From Longivirga aurantiaca (GTDB lineage Bacteria; Actinomycetota; Actinomycetes; S36-B12; CAIYMF01), in assembly GCF_042660085.1 (NCBI RefSeq), contig NZ_JBHSTI010000008.1, positions 240,001 to 272,000 of the forward strand: DNA of 32,000 nt. The letters run 5' to 3'. A program made the translations under genes and the position numbers. This document shows, one piece after another, positions 2,877-32,000 of this stretch. The notes below the pieces were generated by a model. It worked only from the letters and a program-made list of their open reading frames with translations, had not been told where the DNA came from and did not search any database. Numbering within the stretch: position 1 is the stretch's first letter; the number at the start of each line of letters is the position of its first letter.

Positions 2877-4199
2877 CTACTGGCCGGTAGCATCCCCCGC
2901 TCGACCGAGGCCCGCCGGCACTCGGGTGCGTGCCACGTACGCCCAGGGGTCGTCGCCGACGCGGGCGAGGAGCACCACGGCCGTGCCGTCGGCGGGCGGC
3001 AGGCGCAGCCGTCGGCGTACGTCGTCGACGTCGAGCGAGGTGGCGCGCTTCTTGACCACGACCGTGCCGACGCCGTCCGCGACGAGGAGCGTCCGGAGGC
3101 GGTCGAGGTCGTAGGGGAGCGCGTGGCGCACGGCGAAGCGTGCGGACAGCGCGCCGAGGTCGGTGTCGTGGTCGGTGCTCACGTAGGCGACGTGCGGGTC
3201 GAGCAGCCGTCCGGCGAGCCGGTCGACGACCTCCCCGACGAGCCCGGCACGGATGACGGCGTCGTCCGGCTCGTGCAGCCACGCGCCGACCGGGCCGACG
3301 GGCGGCGGCGTCTCGGCGTCGAGGTCCTGCGCCGACTCGAGGATGACGACGTCGTCGCCGCGCACGACGCGGGCGCGGCGACGAGCCCGCCCGTCAGCGA
3401 GTGCGGGCCAGGCGATCTCGGCCTCGACCAGCTGGCCGTCGACCGACGTCCAGGTGGTGCACCCGCCGTCCGGCGTCATCGCGTGCGGCACACCGGGTGC
3501 GACCTTCGCGGCCGTGCGCGGCACGCGGGCCGCGACGGCCTCCACCCACGACCATGGCGGCGACCACTGCTGCGGCTCGGTCACCCGGGCGCTGCGTCCG
3601 CCGCGGCTGCGGGAGGTGTCGCGCCGCGCGGGATCGACGTACGCCGCGTCCGCGTGCCTCAGCGCTGCGGTGAGGACGACGTCGTCCGTGACGTCGCCGT
3701 CGAGCACCTCGATGTGCGCGGCGAGGCCGAGGGCCGCGACGTTGGCGCGGGCGAGGGCGGCGACGCCCGGGTCGCGCTCGACGGCGGTGACGGCCAGGCC
3801 CGCGCGGGCGAGGGCGAGGGAGTCCAGACCGAGCCCGCAGCCGAGGTCGGCCACGTGGGTGGCGCCGGCCGCGGCGAACGACGCCGCGCGCAGGTCGGCC
3901 ACGACGGTGCGGGTGGCCTGCTCGGCGCCGTCCTCGGTGAGGAGCAGGTGCCCGACGACGTCGCCGAGCCGCGGCCGGGCGCGGCGGCGCAGGCGCACCT
4001 GGGTGAGGACGGCGGCGATCTGCGCGGGGCCGGCGTCGGGGGTCGTCCGGCGCAGGGCGGCCGAGGCGCGCAGCGGGTCGACCGCGCCGGCCTCCCCGGC
4101 CGCCGCACGCTCGTGGGCGTCGTCGTCGTACGCCGTGGCCGCGGCGAGCGCGGCGCGTCCGGCGTCCGACGTCAGCCAGGCGACGGTCTCAAGGTCCAC
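2877..4199 (-). CDS. class I SAM-dependent methyltransferase (THUMP-like type); start uncertain
   Basis: Track ORF 2877..4310. SAM motif I is VADLGCGLGLDSLALARAG, followed by AVERD. I prefer GTG at 4199 (VDLETVAWLTSDAG...) because GAGAGG lies about 8 nt upstream. The longest ORF begins at 4310. Confidence 0.72.
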   Translation of the reverse strand: MDLETVAWLTSDAGRAALAAATAYDDDAHERAAAGEAGAVDPLRASAALRRTTPDAGPAQIAAVLTQVRLRRRARPRLGDVVGHLLLTEDGAEQATRTVVADLRAASFAAAGATHVADLGCGLGLDSLALARAGLAVTAVERDPGVAALARANVAALGLAAHIEVLDGDVTDDVVLTAALRHADAAYVDPARRDTSRSRGGRSARVTEPQQWSPPWSWVEAVAARVPRTAAKVAPGVPHAMTPDGGCTTWTSVDGQLVEAEIAWPALADGRARRRARVVRGDDVVILESAQDLDAETPPPVGPVGAWLHEPDDAVIRAGLVGEVVDRLAGRLLDPHVAYVSTDHDTDLGALSARFAVRHALPYDLDRLRTLLVADGVGTVVVKKRATSLDVDDVRRRLRLPPADGTAVVLLARVGDDPWAYVARTRVPAGLGRAGDATGQ

Positions 4200-4303
4200 G
4201 CCGGACACCCTCTCAGGTGTCGCGCGGTGCCCGGTGAGGGCCGACTTCGTTGCGTTCTGAGCCGCGAAGGGCCCCGTCATCGCGAACGGGAGGGGGCTGG
4301 GGG

Positions 4304-4871: not shown

Positions 4872-6530
<1,659 letters not shown>

Positions 6531-6556
6531 TCGTCCGGCTGCCAGCACCACGACAC

Positions 6557-6590
6557 GAGAAAGGCCCCGCCGCGAGGCGGGGCCTTTCTC
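6557..6590 (+). terminator. intrinsic terminator hairpin after groEL
   Basis: GAGAAAGGCCCCGCC-GCGA-GGCGGGGCCTTTCTC is a perfect 15-bp stem with a 4-nt loop, starting 27 nt after the groEL stop. Confidence 0.75.
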
Positions 6591-6596
6591 GTCGTT

Positions 6597-6620
6597 GCGG
6601 CGGACCCGGAGGTCCGCCGC
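6597..6620. terminator. second hairpin in the convergent groEL/whiB spacer
   Basis: GCGGCGGAC-CCGGAG-GTCCGCCGC is a perfect 9-bp stem. It could serve the minus-strand whiB gene. Confidence 0.4.
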
Positions 6621-6702
6621 CGGGCCGGGTGCGCGCACGCACGGCCCTGGTCGGGTGAGGCGCCCGCGAGGGGGGTCAGAGGCGCCGCGCCCGACAGGTC
6701 GG

Positions 6703-7014
6703 TCAGGCAGGGCGGGCGTAGGAGCCCGAGAGCCGCTGCTTGAGGTAGATCGCCTCGCGCTCGTCCTCGGACAGGCCGCCCCAGACGCCGTACGGCTCAC
6801 GCACCGAGAGGGCGTGCGCCGCGCACATGGCAGCCACAGGGCACCGGGCGCACACGCTCTTGGCCGCGAGCTCGCGGGAGAGCCGTGACGGGCCGCGCTC
6901 GCCCTCGGGGTGGAAGAACAGGTCGCTGTCCTCGCCGCGGCAGGCGGCGTCGAGCTGCCAGTCCCAGAGGTCCGCGTTCGGGCCGGGGAGCCGGGAAACA
7001 TCCGCCATGGTCAT
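6703..7014 (-). CDS. whiB3: WhiB-family [4Fe-4S] transcription factor, WhiB3/WhiD-like
   Basis: 103 aa: ...LPGPNADLWDWQLDAACRGEDSDLFFHPEGERG...CARCPVAAMCAAHALSVREPYGVWGGLSEDERE. It has four Cys and the GVWGG turn. The N-terminal LPGPNAD.W.WQ and its position next to groEL1 match my memory of M. tuberculosis WhiB3. Confidence 0.93.
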   Translation of the reverse strand: MTMADVSRLPGPNADLWDWQLDAACRGEDSDLFFHPEGERGPSRLSRELAAKSVCARCPVAAMCAAHALSVREPYGVWGGLSEDEREAIYLKQRLSGSYARPA

Positions 7015-7037
7015 GCTCCTTCTGTGCGTCTGCTCAG

Positions 7038-7066
7038 AACCTACAACCGCTTCAGAAGTTGGTCAA
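7038..7066 (-). promoter_or_regulatory. whiB promoter candidate (TTGACC-N17-TAGGTT on the minus strand)
   Basis: On the minus strand: TTGACC (7066-7061), a 17-nt spacer, then TAGGTT (7043-7038). GAAGGAG and the ATG at 7014 follow about 20 nt downstream. Confidence 0.5.
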
Positions 7067-7305
7067 CACTCTATGTTGAACAACTTACGAAGCGATGCAG
7101 TGACCTCCGCCACGTTTCGCGGGCCGACCCCTGCACCGGTACTTCGCCGCCGGGCGCGGTCCTGGATGCCTGCCTCGCGGAGGAGTGCGTCACGACCGTC
7201 CCGATGCTGGCTCAACGCTGTGACCTGGGGTGTTCGTTCCCCACCGCGGGCATCCGGCCGGACAGCGGACGGGCGTCGGAGGCGCCGGGGCGGCCGGCCG
7301 CCCCG

Positions 7306-7334
7306 ACGGACCGGGACCGTCGGTCCCGGTCCGT
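7306..7334. repeat. 29-bp perfect palindrome
   Basis: ACGGACCGGGACCG-T-CGGTCCCGGTCCGT; each arm also contains the tandem GGACCG GGACCG. It ends 63 nt upstream of the MerR-family gene start. Confidence 0.85.
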
Positions 7335-7396
7335 GGCGCGGTGCTGGCGCGTTTCGGCTGGCCCCTGGCCTGGTTGCCCCCCACAATCAGCAGGTC

Positions 7397-8407
7397 ATGG
7401 TCCTGTCCGAGCGCGCTCCCGGCGCACCGGACGCCTCGGCACCCGGCCTCACGGTCGCGGCTGTCGCGCGGCGTCTCGGTGTCGCACCGGCGACCCTGCG
7501 CACCTGGGACCGCCGCTACGGCCTCGGCCCCACCGAGCGCACGGCGGGCAGCCACCGGCGGTACTCCACCATCGACGTCGCCCGCCTCGACCTCATGCGC
7601 CGGCTCGTCAACACCGGCGTCCCCCCGGCCGACGCCGCCCGTGCCGCGCTCGTCGCGGACGTCGAGCCCGCGCGTGCGGCCTCGCTCGACGGCACCGCGA
7701 CACACGTCGAGCTGCTCACCCCCGACCTCGCCGACCTCGACCCGCTCTTCGACGAGCGGGCGCCCGCCGGCGGCGGCAATGTCATCCCGCTGCCCGACGG
7801 CTCCCCGCAGGTCCGCGGCCTCGCCCGTGCGGCGATGAGCCTCGACTCGATCGCCTGCGTCGAGATCGTGCGCGACACCATCGAGCGGCGCGGAGTCGTC
7901 TGGACCTGGGACCAGCTCGTGGTGCCGGTGCTGGTCGGCGTCGGCCGGCGGTGGGAGGCGACGGGCACGGGCATCGAGGTCGAGCACCTCCTGTCGGAGT
8001 CGGTCACGGCCGCGCTCACCGGCGTCGTCTCGCGCCTTCGGGCCCCGGTGAACCCCCGCCCGGTGCTGCTGGCCTGCGCGCCCAGCGAGATGCACTCGCT
8101 GCCGCTGTTCGCCGTGTCGGCGGCGCTGTCCGAGCGCCACATCGGTGCCCGCGTGCTCGGTGCGCGCGTTCCGCGCGAGGCGCTCGTCGCGGCGGTCCGC
8201 CGCACCGGCCCGAGCGCGGTGCTGGTCTGGGCCTACACCGATGCGACCGGTGCCCGGGAGGCGCTCGAGGAGCTGCCCTCGATGCGGCCGTCGCCGTCGG
8301 TCATCGCCGCCGGGCCGGGCTGGACCGAGCCCCTGCCCGCCGGGGTGGCGCACGTGTCCGACCTCGTCGGCGCGGTGGCGCGCATCGCGCACGCCGTCGG
8401 CCTCTGA
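7397..8407 (+). CDS. MerR-family transcriptional regulator with a C-terminal B12-binding-like domain
   Basis: In-frame ATG at 7397 within track ORF 6827..8407. The N-terminal HTH is LTVAAVARRLGVAPATLRTWDRRYGL...HRRYS. Further on are W-x9-E-H (GRRWEATGTGIEVEHLL) and E-x-H-x-x-P (SEMHSLP) motifs, as in CarH/LitR-type regulators. Confidence 0.85.
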   Translation: MVLSERAPGAPDASAPGLTVAAVARRLGVAPATLRTWDRRYGLGPTERTAGSHRRYSTIDVARLDLMRRLVNTGVPPADAARAALVADVEPARAASLDGTATHVELLTPDLADLDPLFDERAPAGGGNVIPLPDGSPQVRGLARAAMSLDSIACVEIVRDTIERRGVVWTWDQLVVPVLVGVGRRWEATGTGIEVEHLLSESVTAALTGVVSRLRAPVNPRPVLLACAPSEMHSLPLFAVSAALSERHIGARVLGARVPREALVAAVRRTGPSAVLVWAYTDATGAREALEELPSMRPSPSVIAAGPGWTEPLPAGVAHVSDLVGAVARIAHAVGL

Positions 8408-8520
8408 CCCCGCCGTCCCGCTGCCCCCGTACGGGATGGCCGACCGACGCCGAGGCAGGACGGGCCGCTAACCTCCGTGCCACGGCCGGAACCGGCCAGG
8501 TCACCCCAGGGAGTGCACGC

Positions 8521-9426
8521 GTGGACGACGAGCTCGCCGAGCTGCTCGCCACGGGTGAGCGCGCGGCCTTCCACGGCCGTCCGTCCTCAGGGGTCGCTCC
8601 GCTGCAGCGCGCGGTCGAGCTCGCCCACGGCGGCGGCCGCGACGCCGAGGCCACCGCGGCCGTGTGGCTGCTCGGCGTGTGCCTCGCCTCTGCCGGCAGG
8701 TACGGCGCCGCCTCGTCGGTGCTCGAGCCGCTGGCGATCTCGCTGCCCGAGGAGCCCGAGCGGCTGATCTTCTCCTCGCTCGCGGCGTCGAGCATGGCCA
8801 GCATCTCCCGCCAGCTCGGCCGGCACGCCGAGGGCCGGGTGCGCGACGAGGTGGCGCTCGACCTCGCCGGCGACGCCCCCGAGGCCCGCTTCGACGCGCT
8901 GCTCGGGCTCGCGGCCGACGCCGTCGGCCTGGGCGAGGACGACGAGGCGGCGTTCCGTCTCGCCGAGGCGAGCGACCTCGTCGTCGGCAGGGCCGACTGG
9001 TGGCGTCAGCGTGTCCGGGTCCACTGGGTGGCTGCGGAGGTGGCGCTGCTGCGCGACGAGCCCGCCGACGCCGTCGTCTCGGCCGCGAGCGCCATCACGC
9101 TGGCCGAGGCCTCCGGGGCGCCCCGGCACGTGGCCAAGGGCCTGCTGTTCCAGGGTGTGGCCGAGGTGCAGTGCGGCGATCTCGAGCTGTCGGCGGGCAC
9201 GCTCCGACGCGCGGCCGGCCTGGCCGAGAGCCTGGGCACCCTGCCGCTCGTCTGGCCCGCCCGGGCGGTCCTCGGGGCGCTCCTCACCGAGGCGGCGCCC
9301 GCCGAGGCCGCCGCGTCCCTGGCCGCCGCCCGCGCCGCGGTGCGTCAGATCGCCGACGACCTGCCTCCCGCACTGGCCACCGACTGGCTCGTACGGCCCG
9401 ACATCGCGGCCCTCCTCGAGGGCTGA
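8521..9426 (+). CDS. hypothetical Ala/Leu-rich helical-repeat protein
   Basis: This is the 3' part of track ORF 6910..9426, with GTG at 8521 (VDDELAELLATGERAAFHGR...). The composition looks coding and helical, unlike the upstream Arg/Pro-rich part of the ORF. I recognise no family. Confidence 0.55.
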   Translation: MDDELAELLATGERAAFHGRPSSGVAPLQRAVELAHGGGRDAEATAAVWLLGVCLASAGRYGAASSVLEPLAISLPEEPERLIFSSLAASSMASISRQLGRHAEGRVRDEVALDLAGDAPEARFDALLGLAADAVGLGEDDEAAFRLAEASDLVVGRADWWRQRVRVHWVAAEVALLRDEPADAVVSAASAITLAEASGAPRHVAKGLLFQGVAEVQCGDLELSAGTLRRAAGLAESLGTLPLVWPARAVLGALLTEAAPAEAAASLAAARAAVRQIADDLPPALATDWLVRPDIAALLEG

Positions 9427-9633
9427 GCGCGGCTCTGCGCCGTGCTCGGGCCGTGCGTCGGGCCGCCGTCCCGGGGAGGTCGTGACCACGCTCCGTCAGC
9501 GTTCCCGGCCCCGGAGGCGCCCCCACTACGGCGAAAGCCGTACACCGTGGGCTCAGGTTCACCCGTTCGTGTGCCGATCACCTCTGTGAAGCGCCCCCGA
9601 ACGGGGGTGCCCGACGAGGGAGTGCGCGACAAC

Positions 9634-11875
<2,242 letters not shown>

Positions 11876-24166: not shown

Positions 24167-25741
<1,575 letters not shown>

Positions 25742-25806
25742 GCCACCAGCGACGACCTGGCACGGCAGTCTGAGATCCCGCCCGCCCAGTAAGGAGATCG
25801 CCGACC

Positions 25807-26223
25807 ATGACGGCAGAGCCCAACCAGCCCAGCTATCCCGGTGCTTCGGTCAAGGGACCCGCGGAGAGGTTCGCGGGCGACGCCTGGTTCGACGTGATCG
25901 TCAGGGCTGAGGGACCCTCCAGGCTGCGTTTGATGTCGGTGCACTTCGCTCCTGGCGCCCGTACGGCCTGGCACTCCCACGCCGTGGGCCAGACCCTGTA
26001 CGTCACCGAGGGCGTGGCTCTGACGCAGGAGCGGGGCGGCGAGGTCGTCACCGTCCACCCCGGGCAGGCCGTCACCTGTGGTCCGGGCGTCGAGCACTGG
26101 CACGGCGCGCATCCTGATCACCTCATGACGCACCTGTCGATCTGGGAGGCGCCGGAACCTGGCTCGGACGTCGCGGAGAGCACGTGGCTCGAGCACGTCG
26201 CTGACGACGGAGCCGGTCGCTGA
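25807..26223 (+). CDS. small cupin-domain protein (GtHNL / 'mandelonitrile lyase'-like Mn-cupin family)
   Basis: 138 aa: ...VHFAPGARTAWHSHAVGQTLYVTEG...HPGQAV...GVEHWHGAHPDHLMTHLSI. AAGGAG lies 10 nt upstream. Confidence 0.84.
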   Translation: MTAEPNQPSYPGASVKGPAERFAGDAWFDVIVRAEGPSRLRLMSVHFAPGARTAWHSHAVGQTLYVTEGVALTQERGGEVVTVHPGQAVTCGPGVEHWHGAHPDHLMTHLSIWEAPEPGSDVAESTWLEHVADDGAGR

Positions 26224-26326
26224 CGGTCGCGGCCCCAGCCGGCCCGAGGCATCAGGGCGCGTGACGGCAGCGCCGACGGGGCGCGTCGCACGAGCCTCTC
26301 GATCATCACGCTGCGTCGACCATCCT

Positions 26327-26613
26327 CTACGTCGGCTCGACGCTGCGTGGCTGCGCGCCCGCGCATCGCTGCGCGAGCTCGGTGACGTACGCCGGGTTGG
26401 CACCCCTCACGGCCTCAGTCGCCATCGCCCCGTCCTCGGCCCGACGTCGGGCAGGTCGGTCAGGGTCCCGTGCTCGATGCGCGACGCCGACCGGGCGGGC
26501 CCGACGGCGTCGAGCGCCGCAGAAGCCTTGCGGTAGCCCTGTACGCGCCAGGTGTCGGCCCGCTCGCGTTCGAGCAGGAGTGCGACGCGTCCTCGCGCCT
26601 CGACGAGGTCCAC
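26327..26613 (-). pseudogene. frameshifted N-terminal stump of a PHP-domain (PolX-like) protein
   Basis: Track ORF 26407..26613 (VDLVEARGRVALLLERERADTWRVQGYRKASAALDAV...RIEHGTLTDLPDVGPRT) resembles the HhH N-terminus of actinobacterial PHP/PolX-like proteins. The match continues after a frameshift in ORF 26327..26659 (...ATEAVRGANPAYVTELAQR) and then stops. No PHP domain follows. Confidence 0.5.
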
Positions 26614-26747
26614 CCCGCGACGGCACGACGACTGCAGGGGTGGTTGACGGCCCGAGCACCGCGACCCGTCTGATTTACGTTGGCGAGCAGCCTAATGTGT
26701 CGTGACGCCACCTGTTATTCTGCTTGAAGTCAACATAAGGAGTGTCG

Positions 26748-28232
26748 ATGACCTCTGGGAGAGCCCCCCGCGCCGGCTCCGGGGAACCCCTACCGCGGGA
26801 CTACAGCCTTACCGGTGAGCGGGCGCAGCAGGCCGTCAGCCTGGGACTGGCCGACGCAGAGTGGTACCGGCCGCCGATCGACCCGGCTCGGCTCCGGGAA
26901 CTCATGACGCGTCGCAACGGACCTGCGATTCGAGACACGACGCTGTGGCTTCTGCTGCTGGTCGGGGCTGGGTTCCTGGCGTTTGGCGCGCTCGGCAGCT
27001 GGTGGGCGATTCCGGCCTTCGCGGCCTACGGCGCCCTCTACGGGGGAGCGGCCGACCCCAGGTGGCACGAGAACGGCCATGGCACCGCGTTCAAGACGCG
27101 CTGGCCGAACGACGTCGTCTACCTCGTGGCCTCGTTCATGCTGTTGCGCGAGCCCACGCTGTGGCGGTGGTCCCACGTGCGTCACCACTCCGACACCATC
27201 ATCGTCGGGCGCGACCCCGAGATCAGCTTCCCCCGGCCGTTCCGGTTTCGCAGCGTCCTGCCGAACTACCTGAACCTGATCAGCGGCCCGCACATGCTCC
27301 TGCGCATGGCGCAGCACGCTGCTGGGAAGATCGATGAGGACACCCGCGAGTTCGTGCCCGAGGCAGAGTTCCCGAGGGTGATCCGAGAGGCCCGCGCCTT
27401 CGTCCTCATCCTCGGGGCGGTCGTCGTGTGGTGCGTGGTCGCCGGGTCCATCGTGCCGCTCCTCTTCATCGGCCTGCCCTCGTTCTACGGCGTGTGGATG
27501 GTGTGGTTCTTCGCGATCACCCAGCACGCGGGCTTGAACGAGGACGTCCTCGACCACAGGTACAGCACCCGCACCGTCTACATGAACCCGGTGTTCCGCT
27601 TCCTGTACCTGAACATGAACTACCACCTGGAGCACCACCTCTTCCCCTCGGTGCCCTACCACGCTCTGCCGAAGCTGCATGAAGAGGTGAAGCAGTACCT
27701 GCCTGCGCCAAAGGCGTCGGTCCTCGACGCCTACAAGGAGATCGTCCACGCGCTACGCATGCAACGACGGAACCCCGACTGGGAGATCCCCGGGCGTGAG
27801 GTGCCCGACAGCGCCGCCTTCCGCCTCACGGCTACGAAGATCCCAGCCAGCAGCTTGGCGACCAGCATGGCCGTCGCGGCGGGTCTCGAGGAGCGCACCG
27901 ATCTCGGTCCCCTGGACCTCGTCCAGCCCGGCCAGGTCAAGCGGATCGACGTAGGCGGTCACACGTACGCCCTGTTCCGCACGCGTCGGGACATCTACGC
28001 ACTCAGCGACGGCCTCTGCACGCACGGTCAGACGCACCTTGCCGAGGGCCATCTCGACGACTGCGTGATCGAGTGTCCCAAGCACAACGGACGTTTCAAC
28101 GTGCTGACCGGGGAGCCGGTGCGACGACCGGCGCGGGTCCCGCTGGTCACGTACGCCGTAGAGATCGTCGACGGCCGGCTGCTGGTCGCGCTGGGCGACA
28201 ACCCGGACGTCACGAGCGACGCCGGCACGTGA
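26748..28232 (+). CDS. membrane fatty-acid-desaturase-family di-iron oxygenase fused to a C-terminal Rieske [2Fe-2S] ferredoxin domain (MocD-MocE-like fusion)
   Basis: His boxes are HENGH (27066-27080), HVRHH (27174-27188) and HLEHH (27624-27638), with TM segments between them. The C-terminal Rieske motif is CTH-x16-CPKH (Cys codons at 28017 and 28074). AAGGAG (26737-26742) favours ATG at 26748; the track ORF starts at GTG 26742. Confidence 0.88.
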   Translation: MTSGRAPRAGSGEPLPRDYSLTGERAQQAVSLGLADAEWYRPPIDPARLRELMTRRNGPAIRDTTLWLLLLVGAGFLAFGALGSWWAIPAFAAYGALYGGAADPRWHENGHGTAFKTRWPNDVVYLVASFMLLREPTLWRWSHVRHHSDTIIVGRDPEISFPRPFRFRSVLPNYLNLISGPHMLLRMAQHAAGKIDEDTREFVPEAEFPRVIREARAFVLILGAVVVWCVVAGSIVPLLFIGLPSFYGVWMVWFFAITQHAGLNEDVLDHRYSTRTVYMNPVFRFLYLNMNYHLEHHLFPSVPYHALPKLHEEVKQYLPAPKASVLDAYKEIVHALRMQRRNPDWEIPGREVPDSAAFRLTATKIPASSLATSMAVAAGLEERTDLGPLDLVQPGQVKRIDVGGHTYALFRTRRDIYALSDGLCTHGQTHLAEGHLDDCVIECPKHNGRFNVLTGEPVRRPARVPLVTYAVEIVDGRLLVALGDNPDVTSDAGT

Positions 28233-28241
28233 GGCGCTGAC

Positions 28242-29249
28242 ATGGCCCTGCATCCCCAAGCCGCAGCGCTGCTGGAGTCGATGGCTCAGGCCGGGCGTCC
28301 ACCTCTACGGCAGCAGACAGTCGCGGAGGCGCGTCGCGGGGCGTACGCCTTCGTCGAGCTGTTCGGTCCGCCGGAGGACGTGGCGCGTGTGGAGCACTGG
28401 TTCATCCCGGGACCTAGCGCGGACCTCCCGCTGCGCGTCTACTGGCCAGACTCTGCGGTCGGCGAAGCTGCGCCCGTCCTCGTCTACTTCCACGGCAGCG
28501 GCTTCGTCATCAGCAACATCGGCATCTTCGATGCGCCCAGCCGAGCCTTGGCCAATCGGACCGGCTGCGTCGTCGTGGCGGTCAACTACCAGAAGGCGCC
28601 AGAGCACAAGTTCCCCGAGCCGTTCGATGACGCCTACGCAGCCACCTGCTGGGTGTCTGAGCACGCCGCCGAGCTCGGTGTCGACCCGGCGCGGCTGGCT
28701 GTCGTCGGTGACAGCGCCGGCGGGACGTTGGCCGCGGCAGTCTGCCTCAAGGCCCGCGACGAGGCGGGGCCAGGGATAACCAGCCAGGTTCTGGTCCACG
28801 CCCCGATGCAGTTCGGCGTGGAGACGGAGTCGATGATCGCCAACGCGAGAGGGCTGCTGCTCGAGGCCGAGGACATGACCTGGTTCGCAGACCACTACCT
28901 CGCTACGGAGTCCGACGCCACTCATCCCTACGCCGCGCCCATGTCGGCCGAGAGCCTGGCGGGGCTGCCTCCCGCGCTGGTGGCGACCGCCGAGTACGAC
29001 CCCTTGCGCGACGATGGTGACGCGTATGCGCATCGGCTTCGCCGCGACGGGGTACCGGTCACCTACGTCTGCTACACCGGCATGATCCATGCCTTCTACG
29101 GGATGAGCCGTCGGCTTGACGCCGCGGAGGACCTCTTCGAGCGGATGTCCGCGCACGTGTGGAGCCACTTCCCCACCGCGGAGTCCAACCGCACCGGACA
29201 GGCGGCTACAGACGTGAAAGGGCATCTATCCGATGAAGTTGAGCGCTGA
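28242..29249 (+). CDS. alpha/beta hydrolase, hormone-sensitive-lipase (family IV) type esterase/lipase
   Basis: 335 aa with the HGSG oxyanion motif, the GDSAGG nucleophile elbow, DPLRDDG and a catalytic His in GMIHAF. It starts 9 nt after the upstream stop. Confidence 0.88.
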   Translation: MALHPQAAALLESMAQAGRPPLRQQTVAEARRGAYAFVELFGPPEDVARVEHWFIPGPSADLPLRVYWPDSAVGEAAPVLVYFHGSGFVISNIGIFDAPSRALANRTGCVVVAVNYQKAPEHKFPEPFDDAYAATCWVSEHAAELGVDPARLAVVGDSAGGTLAAAVCLKARDEAGPGITSQVLVHAPMQFGVETESMIANARGLLLEAEDMTWFADHYLATESDATHPYAAPMSAESLAGLPPALVATAEYDPLRDDGDAYAHRLRRDGVPVTYVCYTGMIHAFYGMSRRLDAAEDLFERMSAHVWSHFPTAESNRTGQAATDVKGHLSDEVER

Positions 29250-29427
29250 CTACGACGAGTGCGAGGCCTACGGCATGTGTGTGATTGCCGCCGCAGACCT
29301 CTTCAGGCTCAACGAGGAGAACTTCGTCGAGATCCTCGACGAGACACCCAGCGAGGACCGCCGCGCCGCGGCTGAGGAGGCAGTGCGGAACTGCCCCATG
29401 CAGGTGCTCTCGCTCACCGTGGACTAG
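29233..29427 (+). CDS. small single-cluster ferredoxin ([3Fe-4S]/[4Fe-4S] type)
   Basis: 64 aa: MKLSADYDECEAYGMCVIAAADLF...AVRNCPMQVL, i.e. C-x2-Y-x2-C ... CP cluster ligands. It overlaps the esterase 3' end by 17 nt. Confidence 0.8.
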   Translation: MKLSADYDECEAYGMCVIAAADLFRLNEENFVEILDETPSEDRRAAAEEAVRNCPMQVLSLTVD

Positions 29428-29738
29428 GAGCCTCACGCCGGACCTCTGACGGCGTGGCCGGTCCAGTCAGCAGTACGAGGACCGAATCGATGGCGCGGAC
29501 GGGGCGTCGGTGAGTGAGGCGCGTCGCTCCGGATCCCCCGGTCGGCAACGGGCCGTTCCACGTTCGCCTGCGGTCGGTCCAAGATCCGTCGACACGGCGT
29601 TGGCCGCGCCGGATGTGCTGGCAGGTGTAGGGCTGGTGCCGGAGGTGCCGCCGGCCCGGGAGAAGGGCCATAGAACCGGACAAGCGTCGTTCTCGGGTCG
29701 GCAGCCCTCCCTTCCTTTCGCTCCCCGACGGAGGACGC

Positions 29739-30194
29739 CTACTCGGTGGCCGACCAGGGGTCGTTGGGAGTCGTGGTAGCTACGTAGCCGAAGTCGCCGT
29801 CGGGCGGGCCCGAGTGGCGCAGGCGCAGGCGCTGGGAGGTCAGCGGCAGGTAGCGGTGCTCGGCGCCTCGGTTGACCATGACGTCTCCGGCTTCGGCCAC
29901 GACCGCGATCACGCCGTCCGGCGTCGCGAACTCGAACCGGCCTGTGCCGGACAGGAAGGTGTGCACCTCGTCGACAGCGTTGGTGTGCCATGCGCAGTGC
30001 GCCTGGTGCTCCTCGCCAACCGCCGGCGGCTCCGCGTCGAACGTGCCGCGCAGCTGCCGCTCGCCTTCGGCAAGGAAGGTGTCGATCAGAGCGCGTTCGG
30101 CGTCCGATCCCTCGTCACCGACGGTGTGCCACTCGACCCTGGCGCCTGCCAAGCGCTGTACGGCGGTGGCCGTGTCCAGTCCGATGTACCTCAC
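29739..30194 (-). CDS. cupin protein with an acireductone-dioxygenase (ARD)-like motif
   Basis: This is the 3' end of track ORF 29739..31232. GTG at 30194 is preceded by GGAGGG at about 7 nt. ...AWHTNAVDEVHTFLSGTGRFEF...GDVMVNRGAEHRY aligns by eye with ARD EHTHGEDEVRFFVEGAGLF...H. The rest of the track ORF is the antisense shadow of the esterase gene. Confidence 0.65.
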   Translation of the reverse strand: MRYIGLDTATAVQRLAGARVEWHTVGDEGSDAERALIDTFLAEGERQLRGTFDAEPPAVGEEHQAHCAWHTNAVDEVHTFLSGTGRFEFATPDGVIAVVAEAGDVMVNRGAEHRYLPLTSQRLRLRHSGPPDGDFGYVATTTPNDPWSATE

Positions 30195-30273
30195 GGCTGC
30201 TTCCCTCCGATGAACGCGACGGTTGCAGGTTGATGGCCTGCTGCACTCCCGTACTATGCACATCACGCAGTTA

Positions 30274-30301
30274 CTCTGCAACCTATGCACAGTGTGCAGA
30301 G
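30274..30301. promoter_or_regulatory. nested inverted repeats in the divergent intergenic region (operator candidate)
   Basis: CTCTGCA (30274-30280) and TGCAGAG (30295-30301) are inverted repeats. They enclose the 13-nt palindrome TGCACA-G-TGTGCA (30286-30298). An extra ATGCACAT lies at 30256-30263. Confidence 0.45.
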
Positions 30302-30380
30302 CTAGCCCCCGGAGGGTAGGACGTCGCCCGGCTCCGCCGGCCCGCCGATCCTGCTCGTGCGATCGACGAGGTGAGGGCCG

Positions 30381-31343
30381 ATGTACGACGTGGATCCCGA
30401 GGTCGCTGCCGGGCTCATCGCCATGTTCGGGCCGGAGCCCGCGGCTCCGGTGCCGGTTGATGATTGGGCCACGCGCCGGCACAACACCCACGCGATGTTC
30501 TCGGAGCTGCGCACGAAGTACGCGCCAGCCGTCGACGTCGAGACGCAGGACGTCACGATGACGGTGGCCGAGGGCGCCTCGGTCGGCCTGCGAATCTACC
30601 GTCCCCACACTCGCGACTCGGACGGCGTGCTGCTGTACCTGCACGGCGGAGGCATGATCATGTGCAACCTCGAGACCCACGACGCGATCTGCCGCGAGTA
30701 CGCCGTACGCACAGGGATGTGCGTCGTCGCCGTCGACTACCGACTCGCTCCGGAGCACCCGTTCCCCGTTCCCGTCGACGACTGCATGGCGGCGCTTCGC
30801 TGGGTCGCCGGCCAGCGCGATCAGGGATGGGCCCCTCATCGGATCGTCGTGGGCGGGGAGAGCGCCGGCGGTGGCCTGGCGGCAGCGGTGGCACTGCGCG
30901 CGCGAGACGAGGGCGGTCCGGAGATCGCCGGCCTCCTTCTCGTGTACCCCATGCTCGACGACCGCACGTGCGAACGCGACGCCGGCCTGGATGCCGTCGC
31001 GACCTGGACGTACGACGACCACCTCACCGCGTGGCGTGCGTACGTCGGCACCGACGGTGCCGCGTCGGGCTACGCGGCGCCGCTGCGAGCGGAGACCGTC
31101 GTCGGCCTGCCGCCGACGTACCTCGAGGTCGGCGAGCTGGACATCTTCCGGGCGGAGATCACCGCGTTCGCCGGCCGCCTGCTCGAGTCCGGGGTCCGAC
31201 TGGAGTTCCACCTCCACCCGGCAGTGCCGCATGCGTTCGAGCTGTTCGCCCCCGCGGCCGCCGTCTCAGAGCGGGCGATGGCGGACCGCGTGCGCGCCAT
31301 TAAGTCGTTACAAAACAAAAAGCGTGCAGGACTAGACAAATAG
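30381..31343 (+). CDS. alpha/beta hydrolase, hormone-sensitive-lipase (family IV) type esterase/lipase, second copy
   Basis: 320 aa with HGGG, GESAGG, and a catalytic Asp/His region ...GELDIF...VPHAF. The last 12-13 codons (IKSLQNKKRAGLDK) are encoded by an AT-rich stretch. Confidence 0.88.
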   Translation: MYDVDPEVAAGLIAMFGPEPAAPVPVDDWATRRHNTHAMFSELRTKYAPAVDVETQDVTMTVAEGASVGLRIYRPHTRDSDGVLLYLHGGGMIMCNLETHDAICREYAVRTGMCVVAVDYRLAPEHPFPVPVDDCMAALRWVAGQRDQGWAPHRIVVGGESAGGGLAAAVALRARDEGGPEIAGLLLVYPMLDDRTCERDAGLDAVATWTYDDHLTAWRAYVGTDGAASGYAAPLRAETVVGLPPTYLEVGELDIFRAEITAFAGRLLESGVRLEFHLHPAVPHAFELFAPAAAVSERAMADRVRAIKSLQNKKRAGLDK

Positions 31344-31613: not shown

Positions 31614-32000
31614 GTGACCACGACGACCAGGAGCCCGCGACGCCGGGCCATGTATCTCGTTCCCGCGGCCGCCGCGATGCTGCTGACGGCCGCCTGCGGG
31701 AGCTCGACCGGCGGGGACGCGACTGCGACGTCCGCATCCGGGTCCGCATCCGGTTCGGCCGGCACGACGACCGAGCCGTACTGCGCGGAGGACGCGGCGA
31801 CCGCCCTGCCCGCCCTTCAGCCTGAGGGCATCGTCGGGCAGGGCCCGAACGGTGAGCCTGCGGCGTCGCCCGACGACGTGCAGATCAGCGACGAGGACGC
31901 GGCGACGATCAAGGCGGGCAAGAACGGCACCCCGTTCAAGGTCGCCCTCGTGTTCCAGTTCAGCGGTGACTGGCCCAACGGCCAGACCAAGGGGCTGACC
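31614..32000 (+). CDS. lipoprotein, sugar-type (RbsB-like) ABC transporter substrate-binding protein; 3' end off the window
   Basis: Absent from the ORF track because it has no stop in the window. My translation from GTG 31614 (after GAAGGAGA) reads VTTTTRSPRRRAMYLVPAAAAMLLTAACGSSTGG...GTPFKVALVFQFSGDWPNGQTKGL. It has a positively charged n-region, a lipobox-like LTAAC, a Ser/Thr/Gly linker, and then a type-I periplasmic-binding-protein beginning. The frame is open for 129 codons to base 32000. Confidence 0.7.
   Translation, partial: MTTTTRSPRRRAMYLVPAAAAMLLTAACGSSTGGDATATSASGSASGSAGTTTEPYCAEDAATALPALQPEGIVGQGPNGEPAASPDDVQISDEDAATIKAGKNGTPFKVALVFQFSGDWPNGQTKGLT

Follow-up and report, generated by a model that had tools for sequence, protein, structure and literature searches.

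A fused MocD-MocE-type di-iron oxygenase of Longivirga aurantiaca and its pairing with a family IV esterase and a small ferredoxin

The closest described relative of the genes reported here is the rhizobial rhizopine locus, which PMC6668481 gives as mocCABRDEF. The published model, from 1998 work cited in PMC13434037, has the MocDEF complex demethylating 3-O-methyl-scyllo-inosamine. Here we describe a three-gene module of the soil actinobacterium Longivirga aurantiaca that is related to mocDE. It lies on contig NZ_JBHSTI010000008.1 within a stretch of 32,000 nucleotides (nt; positions 240,001 to 272,000), referred to below as the window. The first gene encodes a predicted membrane di-iron oxygenase domain joined to a Rieske ferredoxin domain, the second an esterase and the third a ferredoxin of 64 amino acids (aa). 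The domain content, the intact metal ligands and collinearity with mocDE point to a MocD-MocE fusion, and its pairing with the esterase is conserved in its closest relatives. With moderate confidence we read the three genes as an O-demethylase or hydroxylase module for a methylated cyclitol or sugar, most probably a cyclitol, arranged as one transcription unit.

Fusion of MocD- and MocE-like domains

The fusion gene and its parts are as follows.

26738..26743 (+): ribosome-binding site AAGGAG, 4 nt 5' of ATG 26748, closing an AT-richer leader (direct sequence reading)
26748..28232 (+): MocD-MocE fusion gene, 494 aa (496 aa from GTG 26742), with di-iron domain, linker and Rieske domain
26997..27716 (+): FA_desaturase domain, aa 86-325 (Pfam, conservation, model helices, hydropathy)
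27897..28193 (+): Rieske ferredoxin domain, aa ~386-484, with ligands C426, H428, C445 and H448 (Pfam, TIGR02377, CarAc and NDO matches)

An earlier reading of the DNA alone (the original prediction) had described three open reading frames (ORFs), the His boxes, a CTH-x16-CPKH Rieske motif, a 9 nt gap and a 17 nt overlap, and all of these are where it placed them. It had begun the fusion ORF at 26742. This ORF exists, but the upstream sequence is AAGGAGTGTCGATG and GTG 26742 falls within the ribosome-binding site; ATG 26748 is therefore most likely the real start. The 494-aa product from this ATG is also the gene call in P0001/L091, a public contig that is 99.2% identical.

Both domains of the fusion are recognized by Pfam. 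PF00487 (FA_desaturase) matches aa 86-325 (E 3e-38, 132.5 bits against a cutoff of 29.7) and PF00355 (Rieske) matches aa 393-471 (E 4e-14, 52.7 bits against a cutoff of 20.3). The His boxes are HENGH at 109, HVRHH at 145 and HLEHH at 295. In the Rieske motif, CTH lies at 426 and CPKH at 445, and 16 residues separate H428 from C445. The box histidines, H262, H272, H313 and the four Rieske ligands either never vary in an alignment of 100 homologues or are conserved in 90% or more of them. In the AlphaFold2 model (mean pLDDT 85, pTM 0.85) helices at 59-82, 89-113, 207-234 and 238-262 make up two hydrophobic hairpins (~59-113 and 207-262), and Kyte-Doolittle analysis gives hydrophobic stretches at ~65-90 and 213-259. 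A sequence profile of the fusion family finds no solved homologue of the oxygenase domain. The Pfam match, the His boxes and the hairpins suggest a membrane di-iron protein of the FADS/AlkB type, with predicted di-iron occupancy and O2-dependent catalysis.

Disorder in the model is confined to the linker (362-382) and the termini. The flexible linker between the domains is ~40 residues long, with low model confidence at 362-382, and so is shorter than the ~50 residues first proposed. The modelled Rieske domain superimposes on the CarAc fold with a target-normalised TM of 0.90 and a root mean square deviation of 1.2 A (Foldseek). CarAc is also a phmmer match of the fusion (E 2e-18) and the NDO ferredoxin is among the matches to Protein Data Bank sequences. 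The concern that the C-terminal domain might lack a functional Rieske fold does not apply, given the Pfam match, the ligands and the CarAc-like model.

The relationship to split mocD and mocE genes is seen on plasmids. A tblastn search of 72,556 plasmids with the fusion matched 492 records, chiefly from Rhizobium, Sinorhizobium and Burkholderia, and in 267 of them at least 80% of the query is spanned across a gene pair. In annotated records the query covers adjacent genes for a "fatty acid desaturase family protein" and a "MocE family 2Fe-2S type ferredoxin", and an FAD-dependent oxidoreductase (MocF) follows the D-E pair in the four loci inspected. A Burkholderia moc-like locus has iolG, a TIM-barrel gene and xylose isomerase alongside. 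The fusion is 51% identical over 340 aa to the MocD-like protein of S. meliloti pSymB, a comparator that is not the canonical L5-30 MocD, and shares an N-terminal RDYSL.G...W segment with MocD-like proteins. Its C-terminal domain is 47-49% identical to MocE-like proteins and has TIGR02377 (MocE_fam) as its best NCBIfam match. The suggestion of a natural MocD-MocE fusion is borne out by this match, these identities and the collinear plasmid genes, and the assignment of the window protein as a putative actinobacterial fused form of the MocD and MocE pair holds.

In S. meliloti pSymB (L081, 11021-11821) and R. leguminosarum pRL2 (L092, 14723-15538) a gene for a PanB-like 3-methyl-2-oxobutanoate hydroxymethyltransferase directly follows mocF. 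This hints that one-carbon (C1) handling is co-encoded with putative formaldehyde-releasing oxygenases in these mocDEF-like loci.

The fused architecture is common and auto-annotated in databases; it is uncharacterised, not unseen. A protein search gave at least 7989 significant matches to the fusion among 8000 scored, and both domains are present in 120/120 of the top matches, which are named "fatty acid desaturase" or "MocE subfamily Rieske protein". Relatives of the fusion are encoded in at least 488 species genomes. ORFs were called and clustered in the best 80 of these at least 488 stretches, one genome per species, and these 80 come nearly all from Acidimicrobiia and other Actinomycetota; further loci, including metagenome contigs, bring the total compared to 90 (L numbers in the text). 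The closest genomes among the matches are Nocardioides sp. PD653-B2 and N. aquiterrae (82-83% protein identity). In the literature searched there was neither a characterised FADS-Rieske fusion nor a study of the trio, in agreement with the original prediction, which knew of no characterised example of the gene combination. JGI labels many fusion homologues (for example P0003, P0016 and P0033) as "Na+-transporting NADH:ubiquinone oxidoreductase subunit F", which is probably a propagated misannotation.

The sole proteobacterial locus among the best 80, from Mesorhizobium (L080), was considered as a possible fused form in Proteobacteria and rejected, because its ORFs are split into MocD, MocE and MocF. 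With two MocF proteins as tblastn queries, MocF was absent from the 79 actinobacterial loci and found only in the proteobacterial loci L080-L082. In the loci examined, Actinomycetota thus have a fused gene with no reductase alongside, and Proteobacteria have split genes together with MocF.

The esterase, the third gene and the portable block

The second and third genes of the module are as follows.

28242..29249 (+): family IV (hormone-sensitive lipase or HSL-type) carboxylesterase, 335 aa, cytoplasmic (Pfam, NCBIfam, motifs)
29233..29427 (+): single-cluster ferredoxin, 64 aa (Pfam)

The esterase gene starts 9 nt past the fusion stop. Its product scores 242 bits with PF07859 and 369.3 with the NCBIfam model NF058653 (LipP1/HSL), over the cutoff of 350; according to our literature check, "LipP1" is a generic haloarchaeal family IV esterase. 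The expected motifs are present: HGSG at 84-87, GDSAG at 156-160, the Asp in YDPLRD (252-257) and the His in MIHAF (281-285). There are many solved relatives, of which Est8 (4ypv) is the best (phmmer E 5e-77). The esterase has no signal peptide and would therefore act on imported material.

The ferredoxin gene overlaps the 3' end of the esterase gene by 17 nt. PF13459 (Fer4_15) matches the product at 32.9 against a cutoff of 22.4, and Fer4_13 matches too. The only cysteines are C10, C16 and C54, in the motif C10-x2-Y-x2-C16 ... C54-P55 with Y13 at the variable position, and with three cysteines a [3Fe-4S] cluster is expected. Among solved chains the nearest is 8amp_A, a 'possible ferredoxin' (E 7e-10), and next comes the ferredoxin domain of a CYP51 fusion (6mcw); we take both to be of the [3Fe-4S] type that serves cytochromes P450 in actinobacteria. 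There is no P450 gene in the window or in L001, L002, L004 or L091. No ferredoxin reductase turned up in the window, either in Pfam scans of the main ORFs or when two MocF proteins and a reductase with a C-terminal 2Fe-2S domain served as six-frame tblastn queries. The original prediction was therefore right that the module has a second, different ferredoxin and that no reductase is in the window.

The third gene varies. A six-frame phmmer search of the genome loci shows that the small ferredoxin is limited to four Nocardioides-type loci, including L001, L002 and L004. In L086, a 70%-identical metagenome relative, the third position (3266-4225) is taken by a reductase of 319 aa in which an NAD_binding_1 domain is joined at the C-terminus by a plant-type 2Fe-2S (Fer2) domain, and in most other loci there is nothing. 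The presence of two different electron-transfer genes in the third slot suggests that the slot serves the oxygenase, with the Rieske domain as the entry point.

The pairing of esterase and oxygenase is conserved, and this pairing is what is particular to the window copy and its closest relatives. An esterase gene lies directly 3' of the fusion only in the genome loci L001-L006 and L008 and in the metagenome contigs L083, L086, L088 and L089. Over the same loci esterase identity falls from 81% to 61% as fusion identity falls from 84% to 62%, and the pair has therefore been inherited together. The gaps between the two genes are 9-56 nt, or there is a 4 nt overlap, and this tight spacing is kept from 100% to 62% identity across operon contexts. 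In a neighbour-joining tree the esterase-linked loci form two nearby groups nested among iol-, TIM-barrel- and ABC-linked clades. L089 is a moc-like operon ending in the esterase: genes for a sugar-binding protein, Gfo/Idh/MocA, an ABC ATPase, a permease, a second Gfo/Idh/MocA, a TIM barrel and an ABM protein are followed by the fusion and the esterase. The operons of L005, L006 and L088 resemble it.

The DNA match between the window and the Nocardioides genomes is limited to 26796-29425, that is, to the three genes, and the flanks are unrelated. The trio therefore behaves as a portable block. Within the trio, which is spaced by 9 nt and then by the 17 nt overlap, there is no promoter-like or terminator-like site. 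Promoter and terminator scans over 25700-30500 gave nothing, the RNA fold past the ferredoxin stop is no better than that of shuffled sequences (z = 0.42) and the inverted repeats upstream of the module are unremarkable. The operon structure is therefore deduced from spacing and conservation only.

Two further observations concern the esterase-linked loci. A 100-aa gene with an ABM (antibiotic biosynthesis monooxygenase-like) domain lies directly 5' of the fusion in L006 (5722-6036) and L089 (7245-7547). L003 (CALQEM020000224.1) is a 5.7 kb contig of 61.5% GC filed under a Bifidobacterium breve metagenome-assembled genome; its fusion and esterase are 84% and 81% identical to those of the window, and the contig is probably mis-binned.

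Gene neighbourhoods and the flanks of the window copy

In the 80 genome loci the fusion has as neighbours IolD (38 loci), IolB (36), an aldolase (32), IolC (29) and Gfo/Idh/MocA dehydrogenases (47). A recurrent order is ABC-ATPase, IolC, 2-hydroxyacid dehydrogenase, Gfo/Idh, IolD, fusion, Gfo/Idh, RmlD-like reductase, IolB and aldolase. Representatives score over the NCBIfam equivalog cutoffs (IolD, 841 against 715; IolB, 210 against 205; and IolC, 352 against 300). There is no conserved lipid-metabolism neighbour in any of the 90 loci. A homologue of the proposed rhizopine O-demethylase that sits amid inositol operons would most simply convert a modified inositol into one that the pathway can use, and the substrate of the family is most likely a methylated inositol.

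Downstream of the trio the window contains three further genes.

29739..30194 (-): ORF of no recognized family, 151 aa, convergent, at the downstream end of the module; also called as a gene in L091 and L083
30381..31343 (+): second family IV esterase with GESAG and HGGG, a paralogue outside the conserved block
31614..32000 (+): N-terminus of a lipoprotein sugar-binding protein with lipobox LTAAC, at the window end; Peripla_BP_4 in L091

The second esterase lies 1 kb 3' of the trio. It is 37-42% identical to the coupled type (tblastn against the orthologous esterase genes of related loci) and does not occur in the module of the Nocardioides relatives. The convergent ORF has no Pfam match; it is conserved in L083 (the 85% relative) and in L091 and appears cupin-like by eye. 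Beyond the sugar-binding lipoprotein, L091 continues (5950-11829) with a KDPG aldolase (-), an SDR, a YhfT-family membrane protein and a GMC oxidoreductase. The lipoprotein and this continuation place the module on the margin of a carbohydrate-catabolism island.

Outside this part the window is a housekeeping region of actinobacterial type, with groES-groEL, whiB, guaB, a guaB-like gene, guaA, two ABC exporters and a two-component system. The GC content is 67-78%. Between guaA and the module there is a 138-aa cupin (25807-26223, +) that scores over the NCBIfam cutoff for (R)-mandelonitrile lyase (148.6 against 140). The 500 bp gap 5' of the fusion holds a 68-aa ORF (26407-26613, -) with a sub-threshold HHH_8 match (E 7e-6, 26.8 against 30). 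This ORF could be what is left of a PolX-type gene; in L003 the corresponding place is occupied by an ORF of 670 aa on the minus strand. Finally, a 302-aa ORF (8587-9495, -) beside a LuxR-type response regulator has a first-position GC of 0.94 and no Pfam match, and the gene may be spurious.

Proposed reaction, alternatives and comparison with known systems

We propose that the three genes form one transcription unit for the O2-dependent tailoring of an imported cyclitol or sugar derivative. Electrons would pass from NAD(P)H, through a reductase encoded elsewhere in the genome, to the 64-aa [3Fe-4S] ferredoxin, from there to the tethered Rieske [2Fe-2S] domain and finally to the His-box di-iron centre. 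The di-iron centre would activate O2 and hydroxylate a C-H bond, most probably that of an O-methyl group on a methylated inositol. Collapse of the hemiacetal would give formaldehyde and a free cyclitol, and the latter would enter the inositol (iol) pathway.

The role of the esterase is the weakest part of this explanation. The simplest proposal is that the cytoplasmic enzyme removes a short acyl group or opens a lactone on the same substrate family. The original prediction had coupled esterase and oxygenase in a two-step attack. A functional link is reasonable and the pairing is evolutionarily conserved, but the fatty or sterol esters named as candidate substrates are unsupported because every informative neighbourhood is one of carbohydrate or inositol catabolism.

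The esterase might also be the second half of a formaldehyde-free demethylation, in which double oxidation of the O-methyl group gives a formate ester that is then cleaved to formate and alcohol. The basis for this route is that the sterol C4-methyl oxidases, which are related to the di-iron enzyme, oxidise one methyl group repeatedly. In a speculative variant the esterase would cleave an S-formyl-thiol derived from the released C1 unit. We regard the formate-ester route as very improbable. If true, it would explain why the esterase directly follows the oxygenase, and it would be a new two-enzyme ether cleavage driven by an unprecedented [3Fe-4S] to Rieske to di-iron chain.

Several points weigh against an O-demethylase or hydroxylase for a methylated cyclitol. 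There is no linked reductase, and MocF and Fer2-reductase queries over the window and the 90 loci match only L080-L082 and L086. A precedent for electron transfer from a ferredoxin to a Rieske domain was not found. The Rieske domain scores under the TIGR02377 (MocE_fam_FeS) cutoff (87.3 against 136.15 bits). The esterase has no predicted substrate, an adjacent esterase is lacking in 73/80 genome loci and the small ferredoxin in 76/80. The window together with its 5.5 kb continuation (37.5 kb) contains no iolD, iolB, iolC, Gfo/Idh/MocA or TIM-barrel gene, so the cyclitol link of the window copy depends on its relatives, and the nearby KDPG aldolase and GMC oxidoreductase would suit a sugar or sugar acid equally. 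The genetics of MocDEF-type oxygenases goes back to 1998; to our knowledge no split or fused member of the family has been reconstituted biochemically, and that MocDEF acts by O-demethylation is itself a model drawn from genetics and sequence.

The alternative that survives best keeps the same machinery and changes the substrate to a methylated, and maybe acylated or lactonised, sugar or sugar acid, such as a 4-O-methyl uronic acid or an O-methyl hexose, with the product metabolised through a KDPG-aldolase route. We consider this possible but unlikely. It is consistent with the sugar-binding lipoprotein, KDPG/KHG aldolase, SDR, YhfT and GMC oxidoreductase genes downstream in the window strain and in the 85% relative, and with the KDPG aldolase and two ROK regulators that follow the ferredoxin in L001 and L004. 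Moreover, iolD, iolB and iolC are not seen beside any esterase-linked copy, and an alpha/beta-hydrolase could serve as a lactonase after a dehydrogenase step. However, iol genes accompany the sister clades of the esterase-linked group (L010, L015 and L019 have an IolE-like gene, an ABC transporter and IolC), and the esterase-linked operons resemble the rhizopine locus in holding MocA-like and MocC-like genes. Rhizobial moc loci are also said to lack iol genes and to rely on iol genes elsewhere, which we count against the sugar alternative.

It is decidedly unlikely that the three genes are merely adjacent, the fused oxygenase working with housekeeping redox partners as in most Acidimicrobiia and the esterase and ferredoxin being employed otherwise. 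Adjacency alone would fit the 73 loci that have no neighbouring esterase and the 76 that have no small ferredoxin, the abundance and promiscuity of family IV esterases (a second one is 1 kb away) and a ferredoxin of the type that usually partners P450s. Against this, the order and tight spacing of oxygenase and esterase persist to 62% identity in different operons, the trio moves as one DNA block between differing flanks, and an electron-transfer gene fills the third position in two independent ways with no P450 nearby.

Lipid remodelling, with a membrane desaturase or hydroxylase modifying a fatty acyl or sterol chain that an HSL-type lipase has freed from its ester, is suggested by the Pfam FA_desaturase label, by the family of the esterase and by weak NCBIfam matches to DesA, DesB, CrtR and CrtW, but it is very improbable given that these matches reach only 15-29 bits against cutoffs of 350-500, that the best function-defined match of the FADS domain is the small-molecule hydroxylase GntB (47 bits), that the true homologues are MocD-like (51% identity) and that the conserved neighbours in the 90 loci are sugar ABC transporters, Gfo/Idh/MocA, TIM-barrel and iol genes with no lipid gene among them. 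Lipid desaturase, AlkB/XylM and carotenoid hydroxylase readings were accordingly rejected on NCBIfam scores and gene context.

If the fusion is indeed a methyl-cyclitol demethylase, it would be a single-chain candidate for the missing bacterial enzyme; one study of pinitol demethylase tested fungal pisatin-demethylase genes and bacterial vanB genes. This single polypeptide lies inside the inositol operons of dozens of Acidimicrobiia genomes, including the metagenome-assembled genomes of Candidatus Poriferisocius and Aldehydirespirator, and a single-chain oxygenase-ferredoxin should ease expression. The three-gene form of Nocardioides, with its esterase and P450-type ferredoxin, could reveal how a membrane di-iron enzyme is wired without a dedicated reductase, and this unusual redox arrangement is present in two cultured strains, Nocardioides aquiterrae JCM 11813 and Nocardioides sp. 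PD653-B2, and so is directly testable.

In summary, the module is not a new kind of system but a variant, so far uncharacterised, of a known one that is itself little characterised. It has the oxygenase type, the Rieske type and the D-then-E order of rhizobial MocD/MocE/MocF and of the mocDEF-like clusters of Burkholderia and Pseudomonas syringae, and members of the fusion family likewise have links to the inositol pathway and to genes for Gfo/Idh/MocA, TIM-barrel and sugar-binding proteins. In contrast with MocDEF, D and E are fused, there is no MocF, an esterase is coupled downstream, the Rieske domain falls below the TIGR02377 cutoff, and a putative [3Fe-4S] ferredoxin is added in Nocardioides.

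The components have other counterparts. AlkB-AlkG (rubredoxin) fusions and cytochrome b5-fused front-end desaturases tether a His-box di-iron enzyme to a one-electron donor and leave the reductase separate. The window fusion follows the same principle, but its donor is a Rieske [2Fe-2S] domain, and the substrates of those fusions are hydrocarbons or lipids. The Rieske domain resembles CarAc, the NDO ferredoxin, BphA3/BphF and TodB (target-normalised TM 0.85-0.95, 26-40% identity; Foldseek), but these ferredoxins of ring-hydroxylating dioxygenases are free-standing and travel between their FAD reductase and their soluble Rieske oxygenase, whereas the window domain is tethered to a predicted membrane di-iron enzyme. 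The small ferredoxin shares its size, its three-cysteine CxxXxxC...CP motif and its Fer4_15/Fer4_13 matches with the [3Fe-4S] partners of actinobacterial P450s, but its variable motif position is Tyr and its gene is coupled to an esterase and a MocDE fusion instead. Finally, the window esterase passes the LipP1-family cutoff and has the GDSAG and HG(S)G oxyanion motifs, like Est8, EstE1, AFEST and HjEstP1 (LipP1). Those characterised family IV enzymes are generic short-chain esterases without a known oxygenase link; in the window the esterase is instead one half of a conserved oxygenase-esterase pair.

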